This document shows positions 2,499 through 62,900 of a stretch of DNA of 64,000 nt, one piece after another. The stretch covers positions 1,138 to 65,137 of the forward strand of contig JAZNDZ010000005.1 of NCBI GenBank assembly GCA_045588345.1, given 5' to 3'. The notes beneath the pieces are model-generated. The model did not search any database and was not told where the DNA came from. It saw nothing but the letters and a program-made list of their open reading frames with translations. How positions within the stretch are numbered: position 1 is the stretch's first letter; every line of letters begins with the position of its first letter. The translations under genes and the position numbers were made by a program. This DNA is from Bacteroidaceae bacterium (lineage in GTDB: Bacteria > Bacteroidota > Bacteroidia > Bacteroidales > Bacteroidaceae).

Positions 2499-2504
2499 CC
2501 CCCT

Positions 2505-3277: not shown

Positions 3278-3327
3278 TATTCAATGAATTAATGTTCCGT
3301 AAAAAACAGTCTGAGACCTGCTATTTC

Positions 3328-4038
3328 TTAGACAGCCTCACCCTTTAAGTGAAGGATTACAGAAAGGAGCAGATACCATGAGATGATTGCCACCGGAGCC
3401 AAAAAACCGAGCAACAGCATAGGCAAGCAGCAGAGAAGGAATATGTACCTTATCTTATTGCTCTTCCAACTGAAATTCTTGAACTTTAGCGAGAACATCG
3501 GTATTTCCGAAACGAGGAAATATGAGAAAAGACCTATGAGCGCCAGCAACAACAGCCAGCCGGCATTAAGGCTATTCAGCCATTCACCGCCCCCGGCAAC
3601 GAGCGATGACCAAAAAAGGGCATTCGCCGGAGTGGGCAAACCGATGAATGTGGATGTCTGACGTGTATCGATATTGAACTTTGCCAACCTGTATGCCGAA
3701 AACACAGCAATGAGGAATGCTGCATAAGGCAACACAGAAAGCACATCGCTCAAATAAGCCGGATAAAGCAGTTTGTGCTGCATGAACGAAAAGACTATTG
3801 TCGCCGGAGCAATACCGAATGTTATATCATCGGCAAGAGAATCAATCTGCACACCCATTGGGGAGGAAACACCGAGCAGACGGGCCACCATCCCATCAAA
3901 GAAATCGAACACGGCACCGACCACAATGAATGTCATTGCCAAATGGAAATCTCCTTTGAAAGCCATGACGCACGCTACACAACCTGAAAAGAGATTGCAA
4001 CATGTTATGGCATTGGGTATATGTTTCTTGATTGACAT
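3328..4038 (-). CDS. pssA: CDP-diacylglycerol--serine O-phosphatidyltransferase
   Basis: 236 aa multipass protein. The CDP-alcohol phosphatidyltransferase motif DFFDGMVAR...G...DSLADD is present. Confidence 0.9.
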   Translation of the reverse strand: MSIKKHIPNAITCCNLFSGCVACVMAFKGDFHLAMTFIVVGAVFDFFDGMVARLLGVSSPMGVQIDSLADDITFGIAPATIVFSFMQHKLLYPAYLSDVLSVLPYAAFLIAVFSAYRLAKFNIDTRQTSTFIGLPTPANALFWSSLVAGGGEWLNSLNAGWLLLLALIGLFSYFLVSEIPMFSLKFKNFSWKSNKIRYIFLLCCLPMLLLGFLAPVAIISWYLLLSVILHLKGEAV

Positions 4039-45970: not shown

Positions 45971-47383
45971 ATGAACGAGGTTATCATAGGCAGAAAGGCA
46001 GAGCAGGAAATTCTGCGCCAGCGTATTGAATCAAAGTCACCAGAACTTATTGCCATTTATGGCAGACGTCGTATTGGTAAGACCTATCTGGTAAGACAAT
46101 ATTTCAATGATACTTTCAGTTTCTATTCTACTGGTATTTATCAAGGAACGAAGAAAGAACAACTTGGAGAGTTTACTCGACAATTAGAGCACTATTCTGG
46201 TCGTAAATGGAAGGTTGCAAAAGATTGGTTTGATGCATTTGCTCAGTTGCGTGAATACCTTGAATCAATTAACGGAGATAGCCCCATTGTCGTTTTTCTT
46301 GATGAATTGCCTTGGATGGATACTCAAAAGAGCCGATTCATTAAAGCCTTTGAATACTTTTGGAACTCTTGGGGTGTGACTAACAATCGCTTGAAACTTA
46401 TCGTTTGTGGTAGTGCTACCACTTGGATGCGAGAGAATGTTCTTTCGGATAAAGGTGGATTGTATAATAGAACTACTCGAAGTATCTATCTCGCTCCATT
46501 TTCATTATATGAGACAGAGCAGTACCTTATATCACGCGGAATAAATTGGAATCGCTACCAGATTGCAGAGTGTTATATGATACTTGGTGGTACTCCTCTA
46601 TACCTTCAGATGCTTGAACGAGACAAGAGTTTGACGCAAAATATAGATAATCTTTTCTTTGTGCAAAATGCACCGCTTTCACGAGAGTATAACTTTTTGT
46701 TCCGTTCTCTCTTCAACGAGGCTACATTACACAAACAGGTTATTGAAGCATTGGCAAGTAAGGCATCAGGATTGACTCGTACGGAAATTATGGAAGCCAC
46801 TAAGATCGAAGATGGTGGAGCCTTAACCAAAGCGCTGCGTAATCTCTGTGATTGCGACTTTATTCGTCAATATACAGCATTTGGTAAGACAGAGCGAGGA
46901 ACGATATATCAATTAACAGACTTGTTCACATTGTTCCATCTCCGCTATGTAAAAGGGTATCGTGGTCAGGATGAGAATCATTGGCAAAACATGATTGATT
47001 CTCCATCTCGTAGAGCGTGGAGTGGTTATTCATTTGAACAGTTGAGTCTGCATCATATTCGACAGATTAAGCAGAAGTTGGGCATTAGTGGTGTGCAAAG
47101 TGATATATGTGGCTGGAAAGGTGATGGGGCACAAATAGACTTGCTCATTGACCGCAGAGACCAAACCATAAACCTATGTGAAATGAAGTTCTCGCAATGT
47201 GAGTTTGAAATTACCAAGCAGTATGATGAACGCTTGAGAGAACGTGCGGAGATTTTCCGTTCAGCAACCAAGACACGTAAAGCTATACATCAAACATTCG
47301 TAACCACCTACGGCTTAAAAAAGAATATGTATAGCGGAACTGTACAAAGCGAAGTGGTTCTTGATGACTTATTTGCAGAGTAG
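45971..47383 (+). CDS. AAA ATPase (archaeal-ATPase/ATPase_2-like) with C-terminal PD-(D/E)xK (DUF234-like) domain
   Basis: 470 aa. Walker A GRRRIGKT, Walker B VVFLDELPW, and a C-terminal DLLIDRRDQTINLCEMKF (D...E-x-K). Confidence 0.85.
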   Translation: MNEVIIGRKAEQEILRQRIESKSPELIAIYGRRRIGKTYLVRQYFNDTFSFYSTGIYQGTKKEQLGEFTRQLEHYSGRKWKVAKDWFDAFAQLREYLESINGDSPIVVFLDELPWMDTQKSRFIKAFEYFWNSWGVTNNRLKLIVCGSATTWMRENVLSDKGGLYNRTTRSIYLAPFSLYETEQYLISRGINWNRYQIAECYMILGGTPLYLQMLERDKSLTQNIDNLFFVQNAPLSREYNFLFRSLFNEATLHKQVIEALASKASGLTRTEIMEATKIEDGGALTKALRNLCDCDFIRQYTAFGKTERGTIYQLTDLFTLFHLRYVKGYRGQDENHWQNMIDSPSRRAWSGYSFEQLSLHHIRQIKQKLGISGVQSDICGWKGDGAQIDLLIDRRDQTINLCEMKFSQCEFEITKQYDERLRERAEIFRSATKTRKAIHQTFVTTYGLKKNMYSGTVQSEVVLDDLFAE

Positions 47384-47653: not shown

Positions 47654-48415
47654 TTAGAAATTAGGATCAATCAACGATGAAAAATCTGCAAATTTCCCGT
47701 CAGTATGATTTATAAGCCTTTCTAGTGCTTCTGCAATTTGTTCGTTAAGATACCTTATATTCCAATCGCTGTTGTAATACTTTGTATAATAGTACATATT
47801 TTCTATCATACGTATATACCTACTTTTGAAGTCTTCACATGCAAATGGATTTTCCCTATCAAAGTCAGCTTGTGCTTTTTTTAATATTGTTTGAAATTCT
47901 TGATATGAGCTTTCATATTTTTTTAGTGGTTCCTGCACAATAGAATATTCCTGCTTGAAATTAGCCGAATATATTCTGTCAAAATAAGATATGGCCTCTT
48001 TAACAGCGACTCTATCGTATCTTTCGTACAACCACCTATTTGCAAGTTTAACCATACAAGTGTCAACAAACCCCATATTCCCTTGCAGTTTAGCAATTTC
48101 TTTCTCTTTATTGCAAATAACTAACATAAGGGAATCTTTTTGTCGATTTGCTCTTACAATCATTCTCATTGAGTCTTGCTTTGCACTACGTCTTATGGAA
48201 TCTATGAGTTTAATGTTTGCATTAGCAATGCTATCACGATGCGACAATTCACGACGGAGAGAATCTGCTACATACTTTATACTATCAACATTTTCAATCT
48301 TATCTCTTTCAATTTTCCCTTTAAAAAGGGGTTGTCTTTGTTTCTCCTGGGCTGTAACATTAATATTTACAAGACACAGGAAAAGCATAATTGTTACTAA
48401 TTCTTTTATTTTCAT
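47654..48415 (-). CDS. Hypothetical secreted coiled-coil protein (operon gene 9)
   Basis: 253 aa with a signal peptide MKIKELVTIMLFLCLVNINVTAQ and charged heptad-like sequence. It starts 5 nt after gene 8. Confidence 0.6.
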   Translation of the reverse strand: MKIKELVTIMLFLCLVNINVTAQEKQRQPLFKGKIERDKIENVDSIKYVADSLRRELSHRDSIANANIKLIDSIRRSAKQDSMRMIVRANRQKDSLMLVICNKEKEIAKLQGNMGFVDTCMVKLANRWLYERYDRVAVKEAISYFDRIYSANFKQEYSIVQEPLKKYESSYQEFQTILKKAQADFDRENPFACEDFKSRYIRMIENMYYYTKYYNSDWNIRYLNEQIAEALERLINHTDGKFADFSSLIDPNF

Positions 48416-48420: not shown

Positions 48421-49689
48421 CTAATTATTTTCGTACGGTATCAAAACATATCCTCTATCTGTACCTTTGCTTACAGAACTATCCTTACGATATACAACAT
48501 AAATAGTATATGTTGACGACTTACTTAAGTTACTCAATGTCACGGTTTTGTAATTATACAAGTTTGTACCTGATGAAGGGCTTCCTTTAGTTGTAGTATA
48601 ATTTGAACTAGTTGTAGGTCTTGAGTCCTTACCAACCATAACATAATCATGATCAGACTCACCATTACTGCGGATATAGAATGTAAATGTATCATACCCC
48701 TTGATTGTAAAATACATTGTTGCTTCAGAATTATCTTTATTATAGTTGCTAGAAGATTGATAAGCTCTATATAAAGTACTTGGTGATATCATACTAGTCC
48801 ATTGGTAATTAGTAGTGATATTTATTTCCTTTCGAGTATAAAACTCTTTTGCATTTCTGTAATATTCAGCTGCTTTTTGCTTTAATGCATCAGTCGTTTT
48901 TGCTCCATATCCATATTTAGATTTATTATTATCGTACTCTTGAATTTTACTATTTGCAGCAGACATCAATGAGTTGAATGACTCTTCTGTCATGTTACGA
49001 TAATTTGCCATCTCATTGACTTTTGATTCAACTTGATAATAATGCGAATTACCGATATTAGACTTTACAGCTGCTAGTTTATTTGTCAAATCTGTACAAT
49101 TTGACAAAGGATCCATTGTCCTATACTTTTCAGCATTCTGTATCTTTGTATTGGCATCGCTCACAGAATAGAATGTAGAATATGTCGCTACTTTCTTTGC
49201 TTCCTTATAGTTGCTAATAATCTGTTCTATTCTGCGAAGATCAGTCTCATATGAACCCGCAACTGCACTAGTTTCCCCATAATCAACTTTTAATGTTCTT
49301 AGATGTGCTATACGCTCAAGCATAGCTTTATGGTCAGACTCACGCCAAGTTGATGCTCTGAACTTTGCATGACTTAATTTCGTGAAGATAGGCAGATATT
49401 TCTGTACTAATGCTTTCGTTTGATAATCAATTTCTTCGTCAGTCATAAAAGCCTCACTCTTATATAGAGCAAGTTTGTCAACAACAACATTATATATCGA
49501 ATCATTGAAAGCAGTGTTCTCCGTTTCAGAAAAACCGTTGATATTAGCTTCAAGAGAAGATTTATGCAAATTATTTACCGTAACATCCACAGGAGGTGCC
49601 ACAATCGTGGGATAGAAAGCAAGAATACCCGCAATTGCAAATGCAATAACGATTCCTAGAATAAGGATTTTTTTACCAGTATTTTTCAT
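48421..49689 (-). CDS. Hypothetical N-terminally membrane-anchored protein (operon gene 8)
   Basis: 422 aa with one N-terminal TM (ILILGIVIAFAIAGILAFYP), a helical middle and a beta-rich C-terminal ~100 aa. Its start overlaps the gene 7 stop (ATGA). Confidence 0.6.
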   Translation of the reverse strand: MKNTGKKILILGIVIAFAIAGILAFYPTIVAPPVDVTVNNLHKSSLEANINGFSETENTAFNDSIYNVVVDKLALYKSEAFMTDEEIDYQTKALVQKYLPIFTKLSHAKFRASTWRESDHKAMLERIAHLRTLKVDYGETSAVAGSYETDLRRIEQIISNYKEAKKVATYSTFYSVSDANTKIQNAEKYRTMDPLSNCTDLTNKLAAVKSNIGNSHYYQVESKVNEMANYRNMTEESFNSLMSAANSKIQEYDNNKSKYGYGAKTTDALKQKAAEYYRNAKEFYTRKEINITTNYQWTSMISPSTLYRAYQSSSNYNKDNSEATMYFTIKGYDTFTFYIRSNGESDHDYVMVGKDSRPTTSSNYTTTKGSPSSGTNLYNYKTVTLSNLSKSSTYTIYVVYRKDSSVSKGTDRGYVLIPYENN

Positions 49690-51035
49690 AACATATCTCC
49701 TTGTTTTGTTTTTGACTTCTGTTGCACTTTAGGTTGACTTTTCTTTGTCGTACTTGTTGTACTAGTTTTCTTAGTCTTATGAGTCGTTCCTGCATCCTCG
49801 AGCGCTTTTATATAACCTTTCTTATCGCCATCAGGCTTAATAGTTATATCGAAATCATTAGGATGTGTATTAAAGTTACCAGAGAAAGGCTTATGACGAT
49901 TTTTGGTTATCGCAGCTACCAGTTCTTTGAATATTGCGGATTTGCCAAGAACATTCTCATAGGCCAGTATATCATCAAAACGTCTCTCATTCATTGCATC
50001 CCACAAACCTTTTAGCGGTTCGTGTTTTTCCATCTCAGTTCTGTTCCAGACATTATTATGGTCTATATATGAGATCGCTGCATCTACTAATTTTTCATCA
50101 CTATTACTCTCTGAACCTTTTGGTGCATAATTGTAGTTGCGTTTTTCTAACTCCTTAATGCGACTCTTCAAATCAGCATTTTCTTTCGTTAATTTGCCAA
50201 CTTCTTGATTATCTGCCTTACCTCCAATAAAGTCGTTTAAAGCATAACCACCGCAGATACCGAGCAGTAGGACTATTATAGAACATATCAGGCATGTAAT
50301 CCAGAATTTGCGAGTGAATGGCTTGAATCGCAAGTAATTTTTATCATTGCGTGTAACATATCCATTTTCTGTTACATAGCCTTTCACAGGCGAATTTTTC
50401 ATTTTTCTATTGCCAGATATCTTAATTGGGTAATAGCCCTCTTCATTTTTGAGAGGCAATAGAAACTCATATGCATATGTCTCCTTTACTAATTTTAATT
50501 GTACAGGTTGTGTTAAATTCAAATGACCAGAAATTGGTTCAAAACCTTCAGCATGAATTTTTACCCAAACATTATTAAGAGTTGCTTCGCTAATGCGTAT
50601 ATCTTCGTTTTTACTAATACGCTGCTTCGCTACATATAAGTCGTAATCAGTTACACGTTGACTCCATTCATCAACTACTTTTATGTAATTATAGTTAAGC
50701 ACTCTAACATATTGATTAGGTGTTGGAACAGAATACTTTGCGCCAGGCGCAATTATACTCTTCGTATGGATAGGCATATACCCATCTCTTCTCCATTCAA
50801 TATCTATCGTACCTCCTTCAATGGCATAAATCTGTCCAACAAAAGGTCGCTCTCCAATATAGGGAACAAAAGAATCTATTTTCCCAGGTGATTTTACTAC
50901 TACCATCGAGTATACTTTCTGGTCTGACAAGTTATCTCCTTGAAGGCATTTTAACTTCGATGAATTATCTAATAGGAATACACTCTTATAACTCTTATAA
51001 TATGATTGACACATATCTTTTAGAAGCTCAGACAA
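49686..51035 (-). CDS. Hypothetical bitopic membrane protein (operon gene 7)
   Basis: 449 aa. Beta-rich N-terminal ~235 aa, a central TM (FWITCLICSIIVLLLGICGGYAL), a coiled-coil (LTKENADLKSRIKELEKR), a C-terminal globular part and a Lys/Thr/Ser-rich tail. Confidence 0.6.
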   Translation of the reverse strand: MSELLKDMCQSYYKSYKSVFLLDNSSKLKCLQGDNLSDQKVYSMVVVKSPGKIDSFVPYIGERPFVGQIYAIEGGTIDIEWRRDGYMPIHTKSIIAPGAKYSVPTPNQYVRVLNYNYIKVVDEWSQRVTDYDLYVAKQRISKNEDIRISEATLNNVWVKIHAEGFEPISGHLNLTQPVQLKLVKETYAYEFLLPLKNEEGYYPIKISGNRKMKNSPVKGYVTENGYVTRNDKNYLRFKPFTRKFWITCLICSIIVLLLGICGGYALNDFIGGKADNQEVGKLTKENADLKSRIKELEKRNYNYAPKGSESNSDEKLVDAAISYIDHNNVWNRTEMEKHEPLKGLWDAMNERRFDDILAYENVLGKSAIFKELVAAITKNRHKPFSGNFNTHPNDFDITIKPDGDKKGYIKALEDAGTTHKTKKTSTTSTTKKSQPKVQQKSKTKQGDML

Positions 51036-51053
51036 TGTGTACTTTGCTCCTTG

Positions 51054-51494
51054 TCAATAGTATCTGAATGCACACTTTTCGCCATTGCTTTTTGTAGTGA
51101 TTCTAGATGCAGGTGCTGATTCATATGTTTTCGAAAGAAGTTGGGTTAATCTTTCATCATTTCTTTCGTTAGCAAGAATCTCTTTTTTAACAGCATCTAC
51201 TATTTCAACAAGTTCCTTTCCTGCAATATTAATTGAAGCAGGAACATATATCCATGCGCTAATACAATCAGTGATACGACCCTCAATAAGCGAAGCTACA
51301 GTTAATATGTGTCCAGTATCAATGCTTGTAAGCATTAGTACTGCTGATGAACCATCCAAGTTATCAATGTTCTCAAGGTCTTTGCGGATATCCCAGACGT
51401 TCTTAGTCCATACCTGGTCTCCGTTTATTTCAAATAAATCTGTATAACCCTGATTTATACGAACTATCTTTAAACCTAATTTATTATTATCCAT
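51054..51494 (-). CDS. Small soluble protein, possibly Roadblock/MglB-like (operon gene 6)
   Basis: 146 aa, starting 6 nt after the GTPase gene. The stretch LDGSSAVLMLTSIDTGHILTVASL resembles the Roadblock/LC7 core pattern. This is a weak assignment made by eye only. Confidence 0.55.
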   Translation of the reverse strand: MDNNKLGLKIVRINQGYTDLFEINGDQVWTKNVWDIRKDLENIDNLDGSSAVLMLTSIDTGHILTVASLIEGRITDCISAWIYVPASINIAGKELVEIVDAVKKEILANERNDERLTQLLSKTYESAPASRITTKSNGEKCAFRYY

Positions 51495-51500
51495 AGTTTG

Positions 51501-53147
51501 TTACTTTTTTAATATGTCAAACAAGTTCTTAATCTTTCCAGGTTTGTATCCATAAGACCTCTTAATGAGTGTTCTAACAACCGTTGCTGCTGTATCTTCT
51601 TTGAATTTACAGTAGTTCTGGAAACATACTGTACCTAACGTAAATGGCTGGATCTCCACATTACCACCATTTATTTCATTGTCCTTACAAATCTTCTTCA
51701 AACCATTATAGAAGCCTTGATAGTTCTCAGAGATATAGTTTCTCAGTTTTTCCTGCAACTCCTTGCCCACAGCTTTTGCTTTATCAACCTTAGTAATAAG
51801 GAGATATAAGCCATCTGTGTCCTTTTTGAAAATTCCTGTTCTCTGGATATAAGCCACAGCTGCTTCTAGATAGATATTTTGAGGCAGACCTTCATACTCT
51901 CTGTCCTCAGCACCATACTCTATCACAAAGAAATGAATCTTTCGGTTATCAGTTCTGTTATCAATTAATATGTTGGTCAATGTCTTAAGAACATTCTGCT
52001 GCTCATCTGTCAAAGGCTCTCCGGCGTCTTGCTTATACATACATCTAACAAGCTCACCTGCGAGGTCAATACATGTAATTGGATGCTCTTTTCTGTCTTC
52101 ATCTTCGAGAATAAAACCCATTTCATAAGTAGATGATATTGCGGTACCCTCAGGTAGTGTACCAACAGCACCATTTGTCTTGAATAGATTAGCCAATCTA
52201 TTCATATATCCGTAGCCCTGACAATCTGGGTCACGTTGCATGCTTTTTGCAACTCTACCACTATTAGCAGAACTCAAAATTGCACCTAATGCACAACTTT
52301 TACCAGATGACGGAATACCCCAAAAGTAAACTTCTGTACATGGAGACTTTGTAATCTTTGTTATTGGTTCAGGAGTTTGGAATTTCTGAGGAGTGATATT
52401 AGACATCATGTGTGCAATGAAATCGCCATCAATCCCCGCTCTTGAAAAGTCTGATATAATTCCGTTCTCCCACAACAAATTTGCAACCGTACCGCTAATG
52501 AAGTTATTATCCTCTGAGATAGCAGAAAGAAGGTCATCTACACTAATTTTGCCCGTATTAATGCAGTTGACTATTCTATCATATATAGCCTTCTCTGGAT
52601 TATTAATTCTAGCATCTGTACGTATTGCCTTAATCTGTCTTGCAAGAGCTCGGATATCAACTCCTAGATATTGTTCTCTGCGCAACTCTCTTAAAAGGCG
52701 TGTGGCTTCTGCAAGGTAAGTACTATTAGGATGATTGTCTACAAAATTTTGCAGTTCAGTAATACTTCCTTTGTTAACGCTATCCCAAATCTCATCACTG
52801 GCGCCACTTTCCGCCAATTTCTGCAGTTCCTCAATTCTATCACGGGCAGAACTTCGATATTCGCCTTCTGGATACGAATCAAGGTAATTTTGGTATGCCT
52901 CTTCTGTATTAATGCGTTTGGCTTCTTCCCAGTCTTCCTCTTCGCAGTTCGCAAATTTCTCAGCGACCTGATCCTGTATAGACTTTTTTACAGGTGTACC
53001 TGCTTCTCGAGCCGCATCTCGAAACTCTTCAAAACTCTTTATTCCGGCCTGTTTCAAGGCCTTTACTAGGTCATCGATGTTGTTGCTGTACTCATCGATA
53101 TTATCAAATATAGTATCTAAATCAATCATATTATTGGAATTTTTCAA
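51501..53147 (-). CDS. P-loop GTPase with Ras-like G1/G3/G4 motifs and a helical N-terminal extension (operon gene 5)
   Basis: 548 aa. G1 GIPSSGKS, G3 CIDLAGE and G4 ITKVDK appear in canonical order and spacing. The N-terminal ~270 aa are helical, with two similar segments (YQNYLDSYPEGEYRSSARDRI and LQNFVDNHPNSTYLAEATRLL). Confidence 0.7.
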   Translation of the reverse strand: MKNSNNMIDLDTIFDNIDEYSNNIDDLVKALKQAGIKSFEEFRDAAREAGTPVKKSIQDQVAEKFANCEEEDWEEAKRINTEEAYQNYLDSYPEGEYRSSARDRIEELQKLAESGASDEIWDSVNKGSITELQNFVDNHPNSTYLAEATRLLRELRREQYLGVDIRALARQIKAIRTDARINNPEKAIYDRIVNCINTGKISVDDLLSAISEDNNFISGTVANLLWENGIISDFSRAGIDGDFIAHMMSNITPQKFQTPEPITKITKSPCTEVYFWGIPSSGKSCALGAILSSANSGRVAKSMQRDPDCQGYGYMNRLANLFKTNGAVGTLPEGTAISSTYEMGFILEDEDRKEHPITCIDLAGELVRCMYKQDAGEPLTDEQQNVLKTLTNILIDNRTDNRKIHFFVIEYGAEDREYEGLPQNIYLEAAVAYIQRTGIFKKDTDGLYLLITKVDKAKAVGKELQEKLRNYISENYQGFYNGLKKICKDNEINGGNVEIQPFTLGTVCFQNYCKFKEDTAATVVRTLIKRSYGYKPGKIKNLFDILKK

Positions 53148-54152
53148 TTACATAGTGAATGAACCGTAATCGCCTTCGTTTGAAGAGGAATCATCATCCA
53201 TACTAAATGTCATATCATCTTCAGGGCGGTCAATTTTGCTAGTTTTCTTAGACTTTTTGCGTTTGGGTGTATATGAGTCACCTTCAGAGCCAATGAGTCT
53301 AAATGTACTTTTGGTATTTCTACTTTGAATGATGTACGGAAACAAAAGCAATATATATAGTAGGACTCCAATACCAATTGCAAGCATTGATGGGGTACCC
53401 ATTGTTGTGTACACAGAGCGTAGATTATTTAGGTTCTCCTTAGCCGTTGTTACACTTGGATCAGAGGATGAGAATGGTTCGACTCCATTGGGTTCGTCTG
53501 ACATAATTTTACCAGAGAATTCACTTAGCGAGTTATTCCAATTTTCAATAGCGCCTTCAATCTTTTTGATGTTGCCAATCATAAAGACATTCCATACAGT
53601 CGCCCCTGATGCATTATCAATCCACTGAACCGCTGATTCTTTCAAAGCATTATAATTATCAGCAATCAATTGCAGTCTAAGAGCCTCTACTTCGTTAGTT
53701 CTATGAACAGTCTTTGTTTTATTTTGAGCCAATTTCTTGTCATACTCCTTTATTCTATTATTTGCGTAGACCTCATAAGATTCAAACATACCCTTTGTTG
53801 TCTTTATAGACTCTGAGAAAGTCTTTTCTACTTGACTTCGGTTATCAAAAACTGTCCAAAAGTGAGCATATGGGACCATTACCGCAATAAAGGACAAAGG
53901 TGCAGAGAAGAAAAGAATACGCTCAAAAACGAACTTTCTGCAAAATTTCTCATCAGCCCCTTTCAAAATTTGAGGTATGATGAAAAATATAATCAGTACA
54001 AGATTGATTATCAACACGCCCAATCCCGCATACAGGAAATCTCCATCAGTCAAATATGTGATTCCCATAAATGAGACATAACTGATAAATATCAGTGCAA
54101 TAAATGCAATGATATGTCCCCATGAAAATTTTAATGTTTCATTAATTGCCAT
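53148..54152 (-). CDS. Multipass membrane protein (operon gene 4)
   Basis: 334 aa. Three N-terminal TM helices, a ~150-aa loop, a fourth TM (MLAIGIGVLLYILLLFPYII) and a charged tail. Its stop abuts the gene 5 start. Confidence 0.65.
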   Translation of the reverse strand: MAINETLKFSWGHIIAFIALIFISYVSFMGITYLTDGDFLYAGLGVLIINLVLIIFFIIPQILKGADEKFCRKFVFERILFFSAPLSFIAVMVPYAHFWTVFDNRSQVEKTFSESIKTTKGMFESYEVYANNRIKEYDKKLAQNKTKTVHRTNEVEALRLQLIADNYNALKESAVQWIDNASGATVWNVFMIGNIKKIEGAIENWNNSLSEFSGKIMSDEPNGVEPFSSSDPSVTTAKENLNNLRSVYTTMGTPSMLAIGIGVLLYILLLFPYIIQSRNTKSTFRLIGSEGDSYTPKRKKSKKTSKIDRPEDDMTFSMDDDSSSNEGDYGSFTM

Positions 54153-54161: not shown

Positions 54162-57140
54162 TTATTTATTTTCAGGTAATAATTTTTCAAGTTCACTTAT
54201 CTTTCTCTTATAGGATTCTATTAGTTTTCTAATAGAATCGTAATCTGTTCCATCATTCTCATCTTCAGATGTTGGCGGAGTTGTTTTACCATTATCATTT
54301 CCCGGATCCTTAGGACTTGGTTTGTTTCCAGGATTATGTACATCTTGGCCTGGCGTTTTACCAGTATCGCCAGGATTATCTCCATCTACATTGCCACCTG
54401 TTTCTCCTGAATTCTCATTGACTGGTGATTCTCTATCGATTGGGTTATTACCAGAACCTCCATCCACTACATTAGGATTTGTAATTTCGTTATTGGCATT
54501 ACCATTTGTGTCTGGGAGTTCTGGTATCACACCTGTTTTCAACGCTATTAGAGCATCGTCAACTTGAATCATAGGTGGCATATAATCAGATGCTCGCTCA
54601 CCAGTTGCCTGTAAAATATGAAGTACTTCTGTCACCGAGATATCTTGGTTTAAACTCTTCATTAATGCTACCGTACCTGCAACTATTGGAGCAGCCATAC
54701 TTGTACCATCAAATACGGCATATTCATTGACGGGTATAGAACTATAAATGCCCTTACCTGGAGCAGAGATGTTAGAACCTCTACCATAATTGGTGAAGTC
54801 TGTACCTTTTATTTGCCTATCAACAGCAGCGACATTTACGGTGAAATTCGTTCGATTCTCAGGAGGAATGTTTGCGAGTATATTGTCATTACCTACTGCA
54901 AAAACGATTATCACATTATGCTCATTTGCGACATTAATAATACGTTTCCACACACGCTCTTCGTTTTTGAATTGAGTTTTAGCAATATAATCCTGGTCTG
55001 GGAGAGGTAGTATATCTAGTCCTCTGAAATTCGGACCAATAGATACATTTACAACATTCGCTCCATTGTGAATGGCGTACATTATTCCGCTTGTTACTGA
55101 CGAAAATGTACACATACCATTGTCAAATACCTGTATTGGCATTAGTTTACATTTAGGCGCAACTCCAGATACGCCTTTGTCAAACATCTTATCAGAGCCA
55201 ACTGGCAATCCAGCTACGTGTGTACCATGTCCCTGGCCAACACTTAATCTATTATCCTGAGTAAACACATTGTAAGGGCTTACAATTCTTCCTTTAAGGA
55301 TATCATGTGTTGCATCAATACCATCATCAACAACTGCTACGGTGATATTTGGGCTTCCCTTAGTAATTTCCCAACCTTCTTCTACATCAATTGCATCAAG
55401 ATGCCAGCCTATATTTGCTGTATCCGTACTAATATCGCCAACAATGGTAAAAATTGACTCATCAACTATGAAAAACTCATAGTTTGGAAGCTGTGCATTC
55501 AAACCCTCTCTAATAGCGTCTCGCATATTTTCAGAAATAAGAATCTGTATCATTGTCACATTCTTATCAAAGCCAATGACTTGACACTCATTTTCTGAAT
55601 ACATCTTAGAAAGGTCTGATATAAACTGTTCAAGGTCTACATTCGCGTCTTCAAAGTATATATTTAGCCTATTTGCAACAATATCTGGCGTCCCAGGATT
55701 TGAAACAATAGGAGGCTCTTTGCCGTCATCCCCTACGATAGGTGCTACGACATTATTATTAGGCAACTTGCCATCATCACCAACAATACCCTTGACAGGT
55801 CCATTGTTATCAATAACACGCCCGTCATTTGTCTCAATTACAGGTGTAGGCTCTACTGGGCCACCGCTTTCACATGATCTTAAAAGCCATGACAATAAGA
55901 ACAGCAAAAGTAATAGGAGTAACAACCACAATAGCCACTTTAAACATCCTTTACCTGTAAACCAAGCCCATAAGCGCTTATACCATGGTATGTCCTTTTC
56001 ATATTGAGCTGTAAATGTTGTATCACCATTCAAAGTGTAATCAATCGGTGACTTGTCCCAACCTATAAACTTATAACCTCGTTTAGCCTTAATTGCCGGG
56101 GTATTATCATTATTGAATATTGAACCATAAGGCAGTGTAAAGCAATCTGTACCCTCAATTGAACCGTGTTCACCAGCGACAAATTGACATGTTACATTAT
56201 CTCTATTGAAGATAGCAGTGAAAGTTGCATCCTCATAGATAGCTCCCAAATCGGGCTGAATATCCCAGCCAACGAAAGAATAACCGTTATTAGGTACAGC
56301 CGATGGAATTTGCATTACATCTAGATATGTCCCCTTCTCTATGGAGCATTCAGTTGTTCCACTCAATGAGCCGCCAACACCTGCTAAGAAGGTAATATGC
56401 ACATTTTCTTTTTCTGCGGGAACATCATCTTCAATAGGTGCCTCATCATATAGTGCTGTAAAAGAAAGAAGTCCATTAACCTTCATACCCAATGGATTTG
56501 GATCCCATCCCTTAAATACATATCCCTTCTTAGGAGTTACGGTAGGCAGATCAATATTTGATAATGTGGCACCATCAGGGCGACTAACAACCCCAGCTAA
56601 TTTATCTGTAAGAGTGCCATTTTCTCCTACAATAAAACGTACTTTGTGATTGCTTTGAATCTTTAAATCATGTATTACTGCACCCTTCACGACATGTTTG
56701 TGAGAGTCAGGCGACATACCCCAAGCAACTACTACTACTTTTTCATCATAGCAGAACATAAAGTCCTCATCAATATACTTGAGGGCACCTGTTAGAATCT
56801 GCTTATCCTCACCTGTCAGATTTTTACGTACTTTTTCATATGCTGCAATTGTTTTTTCTTTTATCGCAGCATACTTAGCCTTATCAACATCTGATAAATC
56901 ACTATATGCACACGGTGTATGATTCCACTCGCGCACATACCATAATATCTGATCCTCATCTGAATATATAGGATGAGCTAGAAAGTCTCTATATTGAGGC
57001 TCTACATTCTTCTCAACTACTGAATATACGCTGTCAAATCTCTTGTACAGCGGATCGCGACCGATTCCTTGGAAATCGGTAAAATCAGTAACCTCTGTGT
57101 AACAGAGTTTTCTCTTGCCATATAGAGTATGTTCTGCCAT
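54162..57140 (-). CDS. Membrane-anchored subtilisin-like (S8) serine protease with an N-terminal domain and three Listeria-Bacteroides-type repeats (operon gene 3)
   Basis: 992 aa with no signal peptide. Repeats GYVFKGWD, GYSFVGWD and GYKFIGWD; TM WLLWLLLLLLLLFLLSWLL; S8 triad contexts VAVVDDGID, GHGTHVAG and GTSMAAPIVAG; then a low-complexity N/G/P-rich tail ending in a coiled coil. Confidence 0.8.
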   Translation of the reverse strand: MAEHTLYGKRKLCYTEVTDFTDFQGIGRDPLYKRFDSVYSVVEKNVEPQYRDFLAHPIYSDEDQILWYVREWNHTPCAYSDLSDVDKAKYAAIKEKTIAAYEKVRKNLTGEDKQILTGALKYIDEDFMFCYDEKVVVVAWGMSPDSHKHVVKGAVIHDLKIQSNHKVRFIVGENGTLTDKLAGVVSRPDGATLSNIDLPTVTPKKGYVFKGWDPNPLGMKVNGLLSFTALYDEAPIEDDVPAEKENVHITFLAGVGGSLSGTTECSIEKGTYLDVMQIPSAVPNNGYSFVGWDIQPDLGAIYEDATFTAIFNRDNVTCQFVAGEHGSIEGTDCFTLPYGSIFNNDNTPAIKAKRGYKFIGWDKSPIDYTLNGDTTFTAQYEKDIPWYKRLWAWFTGKGCLKWLLWLLLLLLLLFLLSWLLRSCESGGPVEPTPVIETNDGRVIDNNGPVKGIVGDDGKLPNNNVVAPIVGDDGKEPPIVSNPGTPDIVANRLNIYFEDANVDLEQFISDLSKMYSENECQVIGFDKNVTMIQILISENMRDAIREGLNAQLPNYEFFIVDESIFTIVGDISTDTANIGWHLDAIDVEEGWEITKGSPNITVAVVDDGIDATHDILKGRIVSPYNVFTQDNRLSVGQGHGTHVAGLPVGSDKMFDKGVSGVAPKCKLMPIQVFDNGMCTFSSVTSGIMYAIHNGANVVNVSIGPNFRGLDILPLPDQDYIAKTQFKNEERVWKRIINVANEHNVIIVFAVGNDNILANIPPENRTNFTVNVAAVDRQIKGTDFTNYGRGSNISAPGKGIYSSIPVNEYAVFDGTSMAAPIVAGTVALMKSLNQDISVTEVLHILQATGERASDYMPPMIQVDDALIALKTGVIPELPDTNGNANNEITNPNVVDGGSGNNPIDRESPVNENSGETGGNVDGDNPGDTGKTPGQDVHNPGNKPSPKDPGNDNGKTTPPTSEDENDGTDYDSIRKLIESYKRKISELEKLLPENK

Positions 57141-57144: not shown

Positions 57145-59988
57145 TTAATTATTTATATATAGGGTACTGCTAGTGTCAATTATGTCTTTAATAGCTGCAT
57201 TTGCTACTGAATCAACATGGGAGATATCACTGGCGAATAGTAATCCTATCGTAATAAAGTTCTCCCAACGCTGGTAACTATCCCAGAATGGCAACTTTTT
57301 TAGTGTCGCTAAATCAATGCGAGAATTGTTCATCTCATCTCTTGATTGATCAAGAGCCGAAAGGACTTCTAATAGAGGCTGAGGCTTTATATTCGAACTT
57401 GATGCTGCCGGGGACAAATCAATCTCCAAATGGCATGATTTTGCCTTTTGTGCAATATTTGCCATATCCTTTTCTGACATATATTCTCGACCTACTGTGC
57501 TAACAAAGTTATTTAATGTCAAAGAGGCATAATCAGCTATTGCATTAGGGAGTCCATTTCTATCAAAAACATCGTAATATCTATTTATCTTATCCGAAAT
57601 AGCTCGCTTAACACCAAGTTTGTTCAATAATGTTAGAATCATGAATGCTATCTCATCTGCATGAGGAAGCACATCGCCCATATTTTTTACTTGTTCGTTA
57701 ATATGGTTATTCCAATACTCAATGATGTGTTTAGCGATAACATCGGGGACAGTGGCTAGTAATTCACTTTCATCAGATATTACATCCTCTAATGTGACAC
57801 CCATTTCGGCAAAGAACGATTTTAATTCACTCTCTTCCTTATTGTATCTCTTGCAGAGTTTCTGGATATTAGTAGACTTATCATCGTTAATATCAATCTC
57901 ACAGAATGCACGAATCATCTTAATAGATGACACGCTCTGCGGTTCCTCAATATGACGAACTATGATGTCGTATGCAATGGTTCGAATGTCTGCAGACGAT
58001 ACCATCAAATCATCAATGATACGACCAAATCTTTCAGGTTTTTCACCAAAAGCAAATTCAGTCCTTAGTTTAATGTCTCCTGTAATTTGGCGTATTCTCA
58101 CATTGTTTTCTTCCTTGTCATCAGACTCATAGTAAACGCTTAACCTATTGATGATTTCATCGCGTATTTCTATAAGTTGCTGCAAGTATCGTTCGTGTCT
58201 TGCGTCATCAAGCACTTCGGCTATGGCATCAAGATTCCTAATGATAGCCTTAGAACCATCATTGTTAATTGTTGCTACATCATCCCAAGCTTGTTGAGGT
58301 TTAGCAAAATGCTTTTTAACAAAGGGATTTGCTAGGAAACTTTCTCTCAAATCGTCAAAATATCCCGGGTATTCATCGAATATATGGACACTACTCTCGG
58401 TAGTTCCCTTTTGCTCATTATATCCGTCAAACACTTGGTTTTTAGAGGACCAATAAAAGTCTCGAAGCAAATATACATTTTGGAAGCAAGGAGATGTAAA
58501 TGAGCCTCCTAGAGACACCCATTCATCAAGCCACTTCTCGGGCTCAATAATTTTTGGAATTGTAGTATTGAACCTTGCCCAGTGGTTGTCTAACTTTGAG
58601 GCTGACTCAGGCGTATCGTTCTTCGTTTTTTCAAGGTCAATGTTGAACTTTGTACAAATCAAAAACAGAGGTGCAATACCATTTGTCCTTGATAGTACAT
58701 TGGCTCTAACATCAGGTGTTTCACCGATATTATCCTCAATCCAATTATGTATAGATGCTCCAATTGTAGGTTCAGTCTTTTGGTCATTATGATGACAGAA
58801 GAGTACTGAACTAATCTTCAAAGAACGAGAGTACTTATTAAATAAATAGGCGACTTTTCCTCTTCGAAGAATCGTGGGCAGAACTTCTCCCAACTGCTGT
58901 TCCTTGATTTTTTCTCGGGATCGTGCACCCGGAAAATCCAATAAATCAATCTTCTTCAGGAATTTTCTTTCTGTTGCGATATCCTCTGGCAATACAAAAG
59001 TTAATTCTCCGATTAAAGCAGAGAGGTATGCTTTACTAAAATCTTTTGCAATAAGTTCGCCTTCACGATTATATACGTCTGTATAAAGGACATCATCATT
59101 AGACTCTTTATGAATACCACATACCGAATCAAGCCAATCAATCTTAAGCAATGTACCTTTATCTCTTAGTACTGCGTCGAACGGCACATACACTTCAGTT
59201 AAAAAGTCTAATTTTTTGTACTCATTGATAAGGGTACTGAACAATCTGTTTAACTCTGGATTATTATTCCATATAAGGCCAAAAATATTAACCCAGTTAT
59301 CGCTTGCTACATAACTAATAATAGGGGCAATAATTTTGCAAAAATTTGACTTGCAAATATTTGCAGCATTATTTCCAATGATATCATTGAGATAATCACA
59401 AATATCTCTTATGTCATCCTCAGTAATAATATTGTGAGCTGGCGACTTCCCACTCCACAATTCTTTCATTTGAGACAGAGAATTATCTATATCAGTGTTG
59501 AGCATAACACTATCCGTGTTAATCTTAACATCGTTATAATAAGAGTCTGCCAATAAAAGAATGATATCGACTACTGACAAGTTTGTGATTTTCACATAGT
59601 CAGCCATCTTCTTATTACTTTGCCTAATTGTAAAGCGAGTTATAACACCAGTAGATTCCTGTTTGGTATTATTGCCTCCGCTAGGATTAATCTCATCAAT
59701 AAAACTATAGCGAACGCCATTATTCTCAATAACAAATGGAGCATCTGGCGTTGACAGAAGGCTACTCATCAGATAGGATTTTCCGACCTGACTCTCACCA
59801 TATGCTGCAGCAGAACAGTTCTCCGAGAGAGCTTCTCCAATCCTTCTCAGCTTTCTGCGATAATTCTTAAACACTTCCCTTGGGAATGAGTCTTTCTCGT
59901 ATTTATCTGCCCAAGCAACTGATTGCTTGATAACTTCGAGGTTAGTAATTATATCTCTTGTCATATATGCCAAATTCAATTTATTCAA
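57145..59988 (-). CDS. SrfC-like large P-loop GTPase (dynamin-like) (operon gene 2)
   Basis: 947 aa. Walker A/G1 GESQVGKS (residues 64-71), candidate G2 GVITRFT, G3 LLDFPGARSRE (DxPG as in dynamins), candidate G4 CTKFNID, and a long helical C-terminal half. Confidence 0.65.
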   Translation of the reverse strand: MNKLNLAYMTRDIITNLEVIKQSVAWADKYEKDSFPREVFKNYRRKLRRIGEALSENCSAAAYGESQVGKSYLMSSLLSTPDAPFVIENNGVRYSFIDEINPSGGNNTKQESTGVITRFTIRQSNKKMADYVKITNLSVVDIILLLADSYYNDVKINTDSVMLNTDIDNSLSQMKELWSGKSPAHNIITEDDIRDICDYLNDIIGNNAANICKSNFCKIIAPIISYVASDNWVNIFGLIWNNNPELNRLFSTLINEYKKLDFLTEVYVPFDAVLRDKGTLLKIDWLDSVCGIHKESNDDVLYTDVYNREGELIAKDFSKAYLSALIGELTFVLPEDIATERKFLKKIDLLDFPGARSREKIKEQQLGEVLPTILRRGKVAYLFNKYSRSLKISSVLFCHHNDQKTEPTIGASIHNWIEDNIGETPDVRANVLSRTNGIAPLFLICTKFNIDLEKTKNDTPESASKLDNHWARFNTTIPKIIEPEKWLDEWVSLGGSFTSPCFQNVYLLRDFYWSSKNQVFDGYNEQKGTTESSVHIFDEYPGYFDDLRESFLANPFVKKHFAKPQQAWDDVATINNDGSKAIIRNLDAIAEVLDDARHERYLQQLIEIRDEIINRLSVYYESDDKEENNVRIRQITGDIKLRTEFAFGEKPERFGRIIDDLMVSSADIRTIAYDIIVRHIEEPQSVSSIKMIRAFCEIDINDDKSTNIQKLCKRYNKEESELKSFFAEMGVTLEDVISDESELLATVPDVIAKHIIEYWNNHINEQVKNMGDVLPHADEIAFMILTLLNKLGVKRAISDKINRYYDVFDRNGLPNAIADYASLTLNNFVSTVGREYMSEKDMANIAQKAKSCHLEIDLSPAASSSNIKPQPLLEVLSALDQSRDEMNNSRIDLATLKKLPFWDSYQRWENFITIGLLFASDISHVDSVANAAIKDIIDTSSTLYINN

Positions 59989-59991: not shown

Positions 59992-62900
59992 TTAAAAATC
60001 AAATGCTCCAGAATCCAACCAATATTGATCATCAACACCCAAACTCTGAATGTGAATCTCAATACTGCTATCAGACAATTCAACTCCATTTCTATCTTTG
60101 ATAGAGCTAATAGTTAGATTCTCCTTATCTTCAGGATCACGGTCTATCGTAATCTTAAATGGCATTCGTTTTTTGAAACCCTCTACCTCGTCATTCGCCA
60201 TTGACTGAACAGCTGCATCTGAAGGATTATACCCGTTATCCAATGCTTTATTACGAATTTTGTTTACCAATTTCATATAGTTAAAGTCAATGGAATACAG
60301 CGCCCTTGACGGATAACTGGTCAAGCCGAATTGACGAACATTTAAGATATCAGGGATTCGGCTTACAGTCAGTTCTCCCTGCAACTTATCAGGAGTAATT
60401 AAGTACTCAATAGGCTGGCCATCTCTTGATGCTTCAATATAGTTGACCGTAGACTTCAGATTGCTCTTGAGTTTCTCCAAATTAATGGAGAACTTATCAA
60501 GATTAGAGTACTCGGAAGCATAATGGCCAATTACACCTCCCATAGCCACTATGGTCTTTGGATTGGTGATATATCCAGTGTTTTGACAGAAAGGGTACCA
60601 ATCACCAACATAGTAGTTGTTTAGAGTTATAAGTCGATTTGGCGATACAGGATAGTACTTTAAGAAGATGTTTCGTATTGCTGGTAACGATGACGGTCTT
60701 CCTGACAGTAAAATCACATCACAGGAATAAGCAAAGAACATTGTGGCAATCTTCTTCAAAAGTGGTTCAAACTCCTTTGAAATAATATCGGCTACGAACT
60801 CCTTATTGTACTCCCAAGTAAGAGATGTGATGTCTATTCCCATCCTTCTCTTAAAGTCGTCTATTACGCGTTGGTTAGGTTGGTTAACCTTAAATACATC
60901 GTCATACTTAACTATACAACTACAGCTATCATTTGATGCCAACTCCAAGAAATATGTCATCAACGGGATAGAATACTGTATATTGAAATCGCGCCTTGCA
61001 ATGCGATCGGCAATAGTTTGACCATTATAATCTGGGCCAAAGAAATTCTTAATCTTTTGCCTATACTGTATTGGGTCAAGACTACGAAGAGCCTTGCGGA
61101 AAGCACTATGCTTTTCGTCAAGCAACATCACATTCTTGACTAAGGCCTTGAGCATATCATCGCCTGCAAAATAGAAACTATCGTAAAACTTTGGATCCGG
61201 GGTAATGGTAGTTAAGTCACCTTTTGTGAAAGAGTATTCGCTAATCATCAAATCGGATGTTCCTGCTCCAATATCCAATGAACCAACTGTAAGTGTAGGT
61301 TGCTGATTACCATCCACAACCTTTCCGTACAAATTAAAGAATTCGCTACATACGCCTTTGTATTTATGGCCTACCTCGCCATAAATATACACGAGTTGAG
61401 CGCAAGTCGCTTCATCATAATACCACGAGCCATCATTATCCTTCATTGAACGTACAGCTGGTATAATATCGATGGCAGGAGCTCCATTGCCGTATATAAA
61501 TCTGCCATACAATGTAACAGCATCTTTAGCACATTTCACAAGGGCCTCTCTCTCAATCTTGGACATTGCGGTCGGGCAAGTAATAATTATTCGCTTTATC
61601 TTGCGTGGAACTGTTTTCCAGCCAACATCAATTCGATATGGCTCACTATTAATCTGGCTATTAGCCTGCGAGAGCATCTCCAAGAAGGCAAAGGTCATAA
61701 GGCTCCTTCTAGAGTAATGTGAAGAGCGCCCACCATCAGTACCTGTCACATCGATTCGTCCATCGCTCATAAGATTGGAACTAATGCCTCGAATATTAAG
61801 TATGTGATTAGACTCTTCACCTGGAAGAACTAAAAATTCCCACTCCTTTTTGCTTGGCTTATTATCCCACAAGTATCTTTTAGGACTTGAGTATGTTGAC
61901 AATGTCTCCTCTTCCCATGCTGAACTACAAGCGCGATGTATAAGGGCGCTTGCTTCCTGACCAAGTCTGATAAAGCTAGGATACACAAATTGCTTGCTAT
62001 CATTAATGCCAAAAGAGCCGAAATCAACTCTTCTAAAGGCTAAACGCATGTCGAAAGGTTCGTTGTAAGAACGGATACGAACTTTGTCATCTTTTTCCTG
62101 TAACAAATCCGTGTAATCAATTAAACTTAAAGGCTTAACTTGATTAAAATTCGAATTATCTTCAATCAATAATGCAGTAGTTCTAGAATTGCCAATATCT
62201 ATTACCATATCAACATTTCTAACTTCGACATCTTGGTCTTTGTACAACTTTATAGCTGGGAATAATTTGTTTTGAGCCAAATAATTCACCAAGAAAATGT
62301 AAGATGCAATGTAAGACATCTTGTGAGTATTTGCGCCCTTGATTTGCGACACACTGCTGAGTGTAGGATGAACCAATTTGAAAATATACTCATCAATATA
62401 GCTCCAATTCTCCTTTGGGGAACAATAGTCCATCAAGAAAAACTCGTTGTCGCATAACGCAAAATTCATCTCAGAGCAATACTGGTCAGGGAATACCGGA
62501 AACTCATTATATTCATCAGACGAATAACCAGCTCTTGTATCAAACGCGAGAATAACATCGTATTCAAGTTCGGTTTTACCTTCACTTCTAGGCACAAACT
62601 TAACTCGAGACCAGTTCATTGGGCTAAACTTAAAGCGCTTCTCTGTTCTTTTGAAAAAGTATGGAATAGGAATCCATTTATTCTCAAAATTCTTTAATGC
62701 GTTATGTTTGTCAGAGAAAGTCAACTTATATAGCTCTCCTCTGACTCCGTTGCACATTTCATCATCAATCTTGAGAGAATTGATTCCGTCATTTCGCAAT
62801 TCTATAGGATCATATTCGATTGTTGGGTCGTTCAGATAGCCTCCATCGAATAATTCGTGCTTGTCGTAAAACAAAACATTATCATCGGTAGCAACTTCAT

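Follow-up and report, generated by a model that had tools for sequence, protein, structure and literature searches.

DO-GTPases are a family of TRAFAC GTPases with a conserved Walker-B glutamate, found in GTPase-centric conflict systems (Kaur, Burroughs, Iyer and Aravind, eLife 2020, PMC7159879). They often occur as two paralogues (38% of systems) and often near the membrane, with N-terminal transmembrane (TM) fusions in approximately 13% of them; a constant partner, GAP1, composed of N, M and C domains, is encoded downstream or fused, the effectors are variable, and some themes are linked to an Hsp70-type ATPase and to peptidases (PMC7159879). The window analysed here, a stretch of 64,000 nucleotides from a Bacteroidaceae bacterium (assembly GCA_045588345.1, contig JAZNDZ010000005.1, positions 1,138 to 65,137), contains a system that resembles them in part. 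It is a compact run of nine open reading frames (ORFs), all on the minus strand from position 63042 down to 47654, in the order SrfB, SrfC, S8 subtilase, a membrane protein of 334 amino acids (aa) termed TM334, a 548-aa ORF, a 146-aa ORF, and ORFs of 449, 422 and 253 aa, the last two termed p422 and p253. The 548-aa ORF encodes a predicted GTPase, and the 146-aa and 449-aa ORFs appear to be the two pieces of one disrupted gene, that of its partner protein. With moderate confidence, we favour the explanation that the protein is a TRAFAC GTPase sister to the DO-GTPases, that it forms a membrane module with its partner, that the partner gene is broken here, and that the module probably acts in biological conflict.

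The GTPase gene, its G domain and its nucleotide-binding motifs lie at the following positions of the window:

51501–53129, minus strand: GTPase gene, 542 aa from the ATG at 53129; a TTG at 53147 extends the ORF to 548 aa.
51504–52364, minus strand: G domain of TRAFAC type with inserts, approximately 287 aa (about 280), assigned on the basis of Foldseek and HMMER.
52296–52319, minus strand: G1 (Walker A) motif GIPSSGKS; representatives keep GxPxSGK[ST].
52053–52067, minus strand: G3 (Walker B) motif DLAGE; D.[AP]GE family-wide.
51783–51794, minus strand: G4 motif TKVD, of the guanine-specificity type [NT]KxD; TKxD in almost all representatives.

The initial annotation of this region had described a 548-aa Ras-like GTPase followed by a soluble 146-aa candidate regulator of Roadblock/MglB type. 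The minus-strand ORF is present as described, at 51501–53147 with a TTG start, and carries G1, G3 and G4 in the order and the C-terminal position claimed. The annotated product has 542 aa and its homologues 541–542 aa; the exact 542-aa sequence is held in the public protein collection, from which the 548-aa version is absent. Conservation of the G domain was read from the best 150 of 564 representative clusters retrieved in an exhaustive HMMER search, and residue invariance from a 30-member G-domain alignment reaching down to 33% identity. In that alignment the G1 residues W15, G16, S20, G21 and K22, the glycine of G3 and the G4 residues K192 and D194 are invariant, and the G3 aspartate is at least 90% conserved. 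Across the 150 representatives listed, G1, G3 and G4 recur down to approximately 35% identity, G4 as [TS]KxD in almost all of them. This recurrence shows that the motifs did not arise by chance and that the reading of the protein as a GTPase is sound. A conserved LP.GT....TYEM, which precedes the strand at residues 335–342, provides candidate G2 threonines.

The AlphaFold2 model of the 542-aa protein, built on a 27-sequence alignment, has a mean predicted local distance difference test (pLDDT) score of 86.5. Residues 1–242 are all-helical, and residues 265–542 form an α/β region whose elements follow the order of a G domain, with inserts. All 50 PDB matches in the Foldseek listing for the G domain are TRAFAC GTPases, with a best E of 5e-5 and with E ≤ 0.001 for 22 of the 50; they include Nog1, EF-Tu, Roco2 Roc (rank 8), EngB/YsxC, aIF2-gamma and YcjX. 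Sequence searches of the PDB, with single sequences and with profiles, returned nothing usable, the G-domain profile giving a weak septin-3 match (E 0.025). The earlier description as a GTPase-type P-loop protein is therefore upheld, the structural neighbours being exclusively TRAFAC GTPases among the 50 listed and G1, G3 and G4 being conserved. The label ‘Ras-like’ is not: there is no match to the Ras, Roc or Arf families, and the G domain is approximately 280 aa long with inserts. In Pfam and NCBIfam, no Ras, Roc or Arf match was found for the window protein at E ≤ 0.1, nor do these families figure among the 25 that 30 relatives match most often at E ≤ 1. In most members DxxG is followed by a glutamate, not by the catalytic glutamine of Ras-type proteins. 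By its modelled fold, the 542-aa protein is assigned to the TRAFAC class as a GTPase of an uncharacterised family, which here is nearly confined to Bacteroidales. A single exact GTPase sequence occurs on 382 contigs and carries the RefSeq label ‘MULTISPECIES ... [Bacteroidales]’.

Searched singly against Pfam, 30 diverse members of the family point to the DO-GTPases as the nearest described group: 22 of them match DO-GTPase1 (PF19975; best E 5.9e-7) and 19 match DO-GTPase2 (PF19993; best E 3.3e-6), the next family, MMR_HSR1, being matched by 9. Individual DO-GTPase alignments reach profile positions 2–213 of 271. The window protein shares with DO-GTPases a TRAFAC G domain in which a glutamate follows the Walker-B DxxG (DLAGE), and a conserved partner gene lies immediately 3′, with a constant N-terminal domain and a variable remainder. 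Membrane association is frequent, including N-terminal TM fusions (2 of 150 representatives here, versus approximately 13%); tandem paralogous GTPases occur occasionally, here in a single related locus (L089); and the location is mobile. Both systems also show linkage to an Hsp70-type ATPase or a peptidase, although the assignment of SrfB as such an ATPase is a motif reading only.

The differences are equally marked. The members shown score 12–24 bits, below the Pfam gathering score of 27 bits for DO-GTPase1 and DO-GTPase2; there is no zinc ribbon, the partner is not GAP1, and GASH and FNIII are missing. The N-terminal extension consists of a 55-aa module and BamD-like repeats. Instead of two paralogous GTPases per system, each of the 80 loci has one G-domain protein. 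The GTPase gene is accompanied by those of SrfB, SrfC, S8, TM334, p422 and p253, and the main text of the DO-GTPase paper together with one supplement file makes no mention of SrfB or SrfC (PMC7159879). Since the Walker-B glutamate and the overall logic are shared, whereas the scores are sub-threshold and GAP1, GASH, FNIII and zinc ribbons are lacking, the family is a distant sister rather than a member; on sequence grounds, we treat the DO-GTPases as the nearest described relatives of the window GTPase in this sense.

The N-terminal half of the GTPase contains the following elements:

52965–53129, minus strand: N-terminal helical module, approximately 55 aa, common with a separate DUF805-like membrane protein in related loci.
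52824–52910, minus strand: first BamD/YfiO-type TPR-like repeat, NTEEAYQNYLDSYPEGEYRSSARDRIEEL; weak YfiO/BamD matches and a match to the BamD structure 9n2d_F.
52683–52766, minus strand: second BamD/YfiO-type TPR-like repeat, SITELQNFVDNHPNSTYLAEATRLLREL, of the same repeat family.

The initial annotation had noted a helical extension with two related segments in front of the G domain, and both the model and the repeat coordinates agree with it. The two segments are the TPR-like repeats of BamD/YfiO type; the extension is approximately 255 aa long, and the layout of this half is the 55-aa module, the two repeats and a linker. Some homologues carry an extra repeat pair, giving four repeats in all (alignment columns 140–180). 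In 43 of 80 loci the DUF805-like protein, which has approximately 230 aa, is encoded between TM334 and the GTPase; the copy in locus L046 (8519–9199) matches the N-terminal module of the GTPase in BLASTP with 37% identity over 54 aa (E 1.4e-9). Only the first approximately 54 residues of this protein match the GTPase, and the protein is absent from the window's subtype; it resembles adaptor modules described in other conflict systems. The TPR-like repeats are also shared by outer-membrane (OM)-barrel-like proteins encoded late in many loci, which have a signal-peptide-like N-terminus and a C-terminal β-barrel-like region (for example, the 456-aa ORF after p253 in L046, and 15800–17380 in L071).

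The gene downstream of the GTPase comprises the following features:

49686–51494, minus strand: partner gene, approximately 602 aa if read through, equal to the 146-aa and 449-aa ORFs in the same frame.
51054–51056, minus strand: in-frame TGA in place of a conserved Gly codon (RYY-G-QG), codon 147; relatives have GGT or GGA.
50970–51494, minus strand: partner N-domain, residues 1–175, the most conserved part, with motifs GR..D..SAWIYVP and YQ.YY..YK..FLLD.
50250–50306, minus strand: the partner's single TM helix, FWITCLICSIIVLLLGICG, residues 397–415 by hydropathy; the helix in the model spans residues 395–412.

The 146-aa ORF exists where it had been placed, at 51054–51494 and 6 nucleotides past the GTPase stop, but it is not a separate gene. 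The 449-aa ORF (49686–51035) is in the same frame, and a straight translation through both reads ...CAFRYY*QGAKYTL..., with a single TGA only; relatives read RYYG(Q/K)G at this site, with the codon GGT in locus L004. Because the two ORFs share a frame and only one TGA, at a position of glycine in relatives, lies between them, the 146-aa ORF is a gene fragment. Relatives encode one protein of 570–609 aa (578–599 aa in individually fetched loci). The read-through query retrieves more than 100 full-length homologues of 596–609 aa, the closest 98% identical, and both halves are approximately 98% identical to intact homologues. Queried alone, the 146-aa sequence retrieves only seven short proteins, all of them frameshifted tails or truncated; its exact product is recorded once, on a contig that also carries the exact 542-aa protein and other proteins identical to those of the window, and its 90% cluster has 343 members, of which the others that were read are 594–604 aa long. 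The stop falls within the conserved N-domain, which extends to about residue 175. By this comparison, a GGA-to-TGA change at codon 147 appears to have cut the partner gene in its conserved N-domain, creating the 146-aa ORF. Recoding or read-through of the TGA as glycine was rejected: TGA also closes the partner gene, at the point where the closest homologues stop, and is thus an ordinary stop codon in the window genome.

Given a correct base call, the partner is inactivated, and the system in this assembly is probably broken. It is also conceivable, though somewhat unlikely in our estimate, that the TGA arose as an error of sequencing or assembly and that the organism has an intact partner gene. 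The truncated product is found on a single contig only, both halves remain approximately 98% identical to intact homologues, and all operon genes except the partner are full length when compared with the nearest contig (L005), which fits an error; a single substitution, on the other hand, is unlike the typical indel-type assembly error, and costly mobile systems often become inactivated. The locus is a distinct allele, with 96.9% nucleotide identity to L005 over 13.8 kb, and there is no identical reference for comparison, so a real nonsense mutation and a base-call error are not separable. For annotation, the 146-aa ORF is to be flagged as part of a disrupted gene rather than as a small regulator.

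The coupling of the GTPase to its partner is evident in relatives. A scan of one genome per species yielded 177 relatives; the locus counts given here refer to the best 80 loci, almost all of them from Bacteroidales, whose gene orders come from our own analysis with ORFs and hidden Markov models (HMMs). L-numbers denote related loci and P-numbers related proteins. The order in relatives is fixed: SrfB, SrfC, S8, TM334, in some a small module protein, GTPase, partner, a p422-like protein and p253. A clean G-domain HMM finds exactly one G-domain protein in each of the 80 loci. The partner lies directly 3′ of the GTPase in 79 of them, the remaining locus stopping at a contig edge, and the commonest spacing is a 4-nucleotide overlap (29 of 80 pairs). 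Paired partner ORFs are at least 480 aa long in 75 of 80 loci, and none is shorter than 237 aa. The tight linkage of the GTPase to the next gene, proposed from the window alone, thus holds in 79 of 80 Bacteroidales loci. Given the identity of the GTPase and this near-invariant linkage, a switch plus a coupled partner inside an operon is a fair reading; this part of the initial ‘GTPase switch plus regulator’ stands, whereas the Ras-like label and the stand-alone Roadblock protein do not.

Comparison with L004, in which the partner occupies 1872–3608, shows how the partner varies. Its GTPase is 99% and its partner N-domain 93% identical to those of the window, whereas the rest of the partner falls to 39% in the middle, 21% in the membrane/coiled-coil region and 38% in the C-terminal region; nucleotide similarity ends near partner codon 213. 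As the N-domain is conserved with the GTPase while the rest diverges, the rest behaves as an exchangeable cassette. The mosaic pattern in L004 suggests, from sequence, either cassette exchange or diversifying selection.

Three divergent loci (L088, L089 and L090) keep TM334, the GTPase, the partner and the p422-like gene, and in L088 and L090 no SrfB, SrfC or S8 gene lies upstream. Judged by gene content, TM334, GTPase, partner and p422 form the conserved core. P0356, P0357 and L089 have TM334 and the G domain joined in a single polypeptide. L089 encodes a 737-aa fusion of TM334 and G domain (349–2562), followed by a second, intact G-domain paralogue (2621–3760) and then the partner; the fusion is a Rosetta-stone link, and L089 has a true tandem-GTPase arrangement. 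A double GTPase in most loci, indicated by a first HMM that found two to three per locus, was rejected except for L089, because with the clean G-domain HMM the extra ‘GTPases’ share only the 55-aa N-terminal module or the TPR-like repeats, and the double-GTPase idea was contamination.

The partner, if read through, is a single-pass membrane protein of approximately 600 aa, and the ‘soluble 146-aa partner’ of the initial annotation is a fragment of it. A basic stretch before the helix suggests a cytoplasmic location for the first 395 residues, which would put the N-domain on the GTPase's side of the membrane; the membrane topology of the module and a physical contact between the GTPase and the partner N-domain are both inferred. 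The structure model of the partner was built on a shallow alignment (mean pLDDT 55), and its N-domain has a pLDDT mostly of 50–63, with the element order β-β-short α-β-β-β-α. Foldseek also recognises a carboxypeptidase-regulatory-like β-sandwich in the model; because it gives no aligned residues, our tentative placement of this domain at residues ~260–340 follows the confidently modelled β-rich stretch there.

The question of a regulator fold was addressed with sequence profiles and with this model. Pfam searches with the 146-aa ORF, full-length partners and a 35-member N-domain set returned no Roadblock (Robl_LC7), longin or GAP1 match. The profile of the partner N-domain, made from 35 sequences, gave one unrelated match in the PDB (E 0.69), and a PDB search with the 146-aa ORF gave no Roadblock structure. 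The call of a Roadblock/MglB-type protein is thus not borne out: the N-domain profile has no Roadblock match in Pfam or in the PDB. On the low-confidence partner model, Foldseek finds weak longin matches (E 0.025–0.15, none at E ≤ 0.001), which keep a remnant of the idea in view. The Roadblock fold has the order α-β-β-α-β-β-β, and longin is a fold class related to it; we take the β-β-α-β-β-β-α order of the partner N-domain to match longin rather than Roadblock.

Two regulator models were weighed against these data. The one originally put forward, a small Ras/MglA-like GTPase with a stand-alone 146-aa Roadblock/MglB GTPase-activating protein (GAP) or guanine nucleotide exchange factor (GEF), as in polarity and motility switches, is now highly improbable. 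G1, G3 and G4 are present, Roco2 Roc stands at Foldseek rank 8 and the downstream gene is closely linked; the 146-aa ORF, however, is a fragment unique to one assembly with a native product of approximately 600 aa in the membrane, the N-domain profile finds neither Robl_LC7 in Pfam nor a Roadblock structure in the PDB, the G-domain protein lacks a Ras, Roc or Arf match, and its G domain of approximately 280 aa is preceded by a helical extension of 255 aa. This model is largely refuted by the in-frame stop together with the full-length homologues. Like MglA/MglB pairs, the locus has a GTPase gene closely followed by a gene with a possible α/β regulator-type N-domain, for which the evidence is weak; unlike them, the partner is a membrane protein of approximately 600 aa rather than a small soluble dimer, its sequence gives no Roadblock signal, the element order is longin-like and the GTPase falls outside the Ras-like family.

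A modified form, in which the N-domain is a longin/Roadblock-class GAP/GEF platform within the membrane protein, is doubtful but has points in its favour. The element order of the model agrees with it, the N-domain is conserved in step with the GTPase, and the weak Foldseek matches, with probabilities mostly of 0.8–0.97, are enriched in longin domains of GTPase regulators: Nprl2 (6ces_N), DENND1A, DENND1B (3tw8_C), Lst4 (4zy8), components of SEA and GATOR1, and a chain of the FLCN–FNIP2 complex. It is held back by the low model confidence in the N-domain (pLDDT about 50–63), by the failure of any Foldseek match to reach E 0.001, by the PAS, GAF and LuxR-type folds among the same matches, by an output that gives no aligned residues, and by sequence profiles that lend no longin or Roadblock support. 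The known longin-domain GTPase regulators (Nprl2/GATOR1, DENN and Lst4/FNIP) are eukaryotic. The partner resembles them in predicted element order, in the weak Foldseek matches and in its genetic coupling to a GTPase, and departs from them in that the match is not significant, the model is poor and there is no sequence similarity. A longin-like fold of the partner N-domain is a lead suggested by the model, not a result.

The remaining operon genes and the adjoining genes are placed as follows:

59992–63042, minus strand: SrfB-like protein, 1016 aa, PF07520 E 2.3e-218 over profile positions 11–991 of 992; the operon's first gene; 61 of 80 loci.
57145–59988, minus strand: SrfC-like protein (Virul_Fac), 947 aa, PF10139 E 3.6e-101 over profile positions 18–810 of 878; 63 of 80 loci.
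54162–57140, minus strand: S8 subtilase, 992 aa, Peptidase_S8 E 2e-42 plus Flg_new; 68 of 80 loci.
53148–54152, minus strand: TM334, membrane protein, 334 aa, four helices predicted, encoded directly 5′ of the GTPase; 74 of 80 loci.
48421–49689, minus strand: p422, N-terminally anchored, 3′ of the partner; 72 of 80 loci plus L088, L089 and L090.
47654–48415, minus strand: p253, the operon's last gene, 253 aa, with a hydrophobic signal-peptide-like N-terminus; 50 of 80 loci.
63191–63925, minus strand: integrase-like ORF, 244 aa, PHROG integrase E 8e-24, directly upstream of SrfB.
45971–47383, plus strand: candidate defence ATPase, 470 aa, ATPase_2/AAA plus DUF234, matching PADLOC PDC-S27 end to end (E 2.4e-200).

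The SrfC-like protein has its own P-loop, GESQVGKS, and a DFPG motif; the operon therefore encodes two unrelated GTPase-like proteins, and a comparison of the P-loops of the GTPase and SrfC detected no similarity. The SrfB motifs DIGNSRTT and LDIGAGTSD are presumably those of an actin/Hsp70-type ATPase, by motif reading only. No sequence relatives of SrfB or SrfC are detectable among solved structures in the PDB. Membrane segments were predicted by a hydropathy scan, which gave four helices in TM334, one helix in the S8 peptidase (residues 402–420), the N-terminal anchor of p422 and the hydrophobic N-terminus of p253; no membrane segment was found in SrfB, SrfC or the GTPase. The layout of the S8 subtilase is unusual: approximately 390 N-terminal residues carry Listeria–Bacteroides (Flg_new) repeats, followed by a poly-Leu membrane helix, the peptidase domain and a long low-complexity tail rich in Pro, Gly and Asn. 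Searches of the GTPase, the 146-aa and 449-aa ORFs, TM334, p422 and p253 against Pfam, NCBIfam, PADLOC and PHROGs gave only weak BamD-like or coiled-coil noise, and a promoter and terminator scan of the operon gave counts not above those of shuffled sequence.

From roughly 46 kb onward the G+C content drops from approximately 47% to approximately 37%. The PDC-S27 ATPase lies at the edge of this low-G+C island, adjoining the operon, and the far boundary of the island is outside the window. A tRNA scan of the window found no tRNA gene, so that no tRNA marks an island boundary within it. A phage origin was rejected, as tblastn against 50,697 phage records gave no match. Loci L001–L003 and L005–L007 are close copies of the operon that differ in their downstream cargo genes, which encode a TPR and retropepsin-like protease, an M48 peptidase, SNase, LytTR, HTH, ADP-ribosylglycohydrolase/DUF1810 and ParB proteins; variable downstream cargo is typical for the variable region of a mobile element.

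In the mechanism that we propose, the GTPase would sit at the inner membrane face, tethered by the upstream four-helix protein TM334, and cycle between GTP- and GDP-bound states. The constant cytoplasmic N-domain of the partner would couple it to the partner's variable remainder, comprising the β-rich region, the membrane helix and a periplasmic helical domain, which may serve as sensor or output by sensing or transmitting across the membrane. In the window's subtype the module would work with SrfB, SrfC and the membrane-anchored S8 peptidase as its output, and the whole would most plausibly be a nucleotide-gated biological-conflict (defence) system. A defence-type role is the leading reading, as the overall logic matches that of GTPase-centric conflict systems (PMC7159879); the G+C drop, the integrase-like gene, the adjacent PDC-S27 gene and the variable cargo in relatives count in support of such a setting.

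Several results weigh against this interpretation. No family member shown individually reaches 27 bits against the DO-GTPase profiles; those members score 16–24 bits, and the window protein scores 12.2 bits (E 0.11). Pfam finds neither GAP1 nor GASH nor FNIII in the operon proteins and no family that matches the partner. GTP specificity is itself a probable property read from motifs only. L015 and L071 each have a diverged paralogue of the partner behind one of the OM-barrel-like proteins, which has only the TPR-like repeats in common with the GTPase and lacks a G domain; the partner N-domain may accordingly bind the helical region and not the G domain. PADLOC searches with the GTPase, partner, SrfB and SrfC gave no match beyond noise, the phage records contain no homologue, and the literature search found no paper linking SrfB or SrfC to defence; searches on SrfB and SrfC with Hsp70 or dynamin, and on the Pfam accessions, returned nothing relevant. 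The sole functional report on srfABC that was found describes cytotoxic and insecticidal activity of SrfABC in Xenorhabdus (PMC6950479).

That report gives weight to a serious rival, which we nevertheless consider rather unlikely: the operon may be an SrfABC-type toxin, virulence or envelope machine, directed at a host or competitor or remodelling the surface, in which the GTPase module regulates assembly or secretion. The matches to the SrfB and SrfC families are strong, four proteins have predicted TM segments, p253 has a signal-peptide-like N-terminus, many loci encode OM-barrel-like proteins with the same TPR-like repeats, and the Xenorhabdus proteins are reported to be cytotoxic and insecticidal (PMC6950479). 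Set against this, the operon showed neither a SrfA homologue nor a gene for a secretion system, the GTPase core is also found without SrfB or SrfC, and a likeness to conflict systems is seen in the mobile island, in the adjacent candidate defence gene and in the variable, cassette-like partner. The genes srfABC are SsrB-regulated factors of Salmonella, and to our knowledge the function of SrfB and SrfC has remained unresolved since their naming. In common with the srfABC operon, the locus begins with clear homologues of SrfB (E 2e-218) and SrfC/Virul_Fac (E 4e-101) in the same order; in contrast to it, no SrfA was found, six further genes including the GTPase module follow, the host is a member of the Bacteroidales, and the island that holds the genes also carries an integrase-like gene.

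Returning to the conflict interpretation, its most specific form is speculative and, in our judgement, unlikely as a whole: an undescribed GTPase-centred system common in gut and rumen Bacteroidales and often on mobile DNA, in which a TM334-tethered sister of the DO-GTPases is linked, via a constant and possibly longin-like N-domain, to a mosaic membrane sensor that exchanges cassettes, and in the main subtype employs SrfB, SrfC and S8 as executioners. Were this so, SrfB and SrfC would gain a first mechanistic context, and the module could supply a bacterial longin-type GTPase regulator. The GTPase family and the eight-gene operon recur in many public assemblies. No family is assigned to the GTPase, the partner, TM334, p422 or p253, and the literature searched yielded no paper on any of them. 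The module is uncharacterised and widespread in Bacteroidales, with a function that is read from its context alone. The constant-plus-variable architecture of the partner and the TM334 fusion, tied to SrfB and SrfC, provide testable hypotheses for a possibly new, nucleotide-gated membrane system in one of the major gut phyla.

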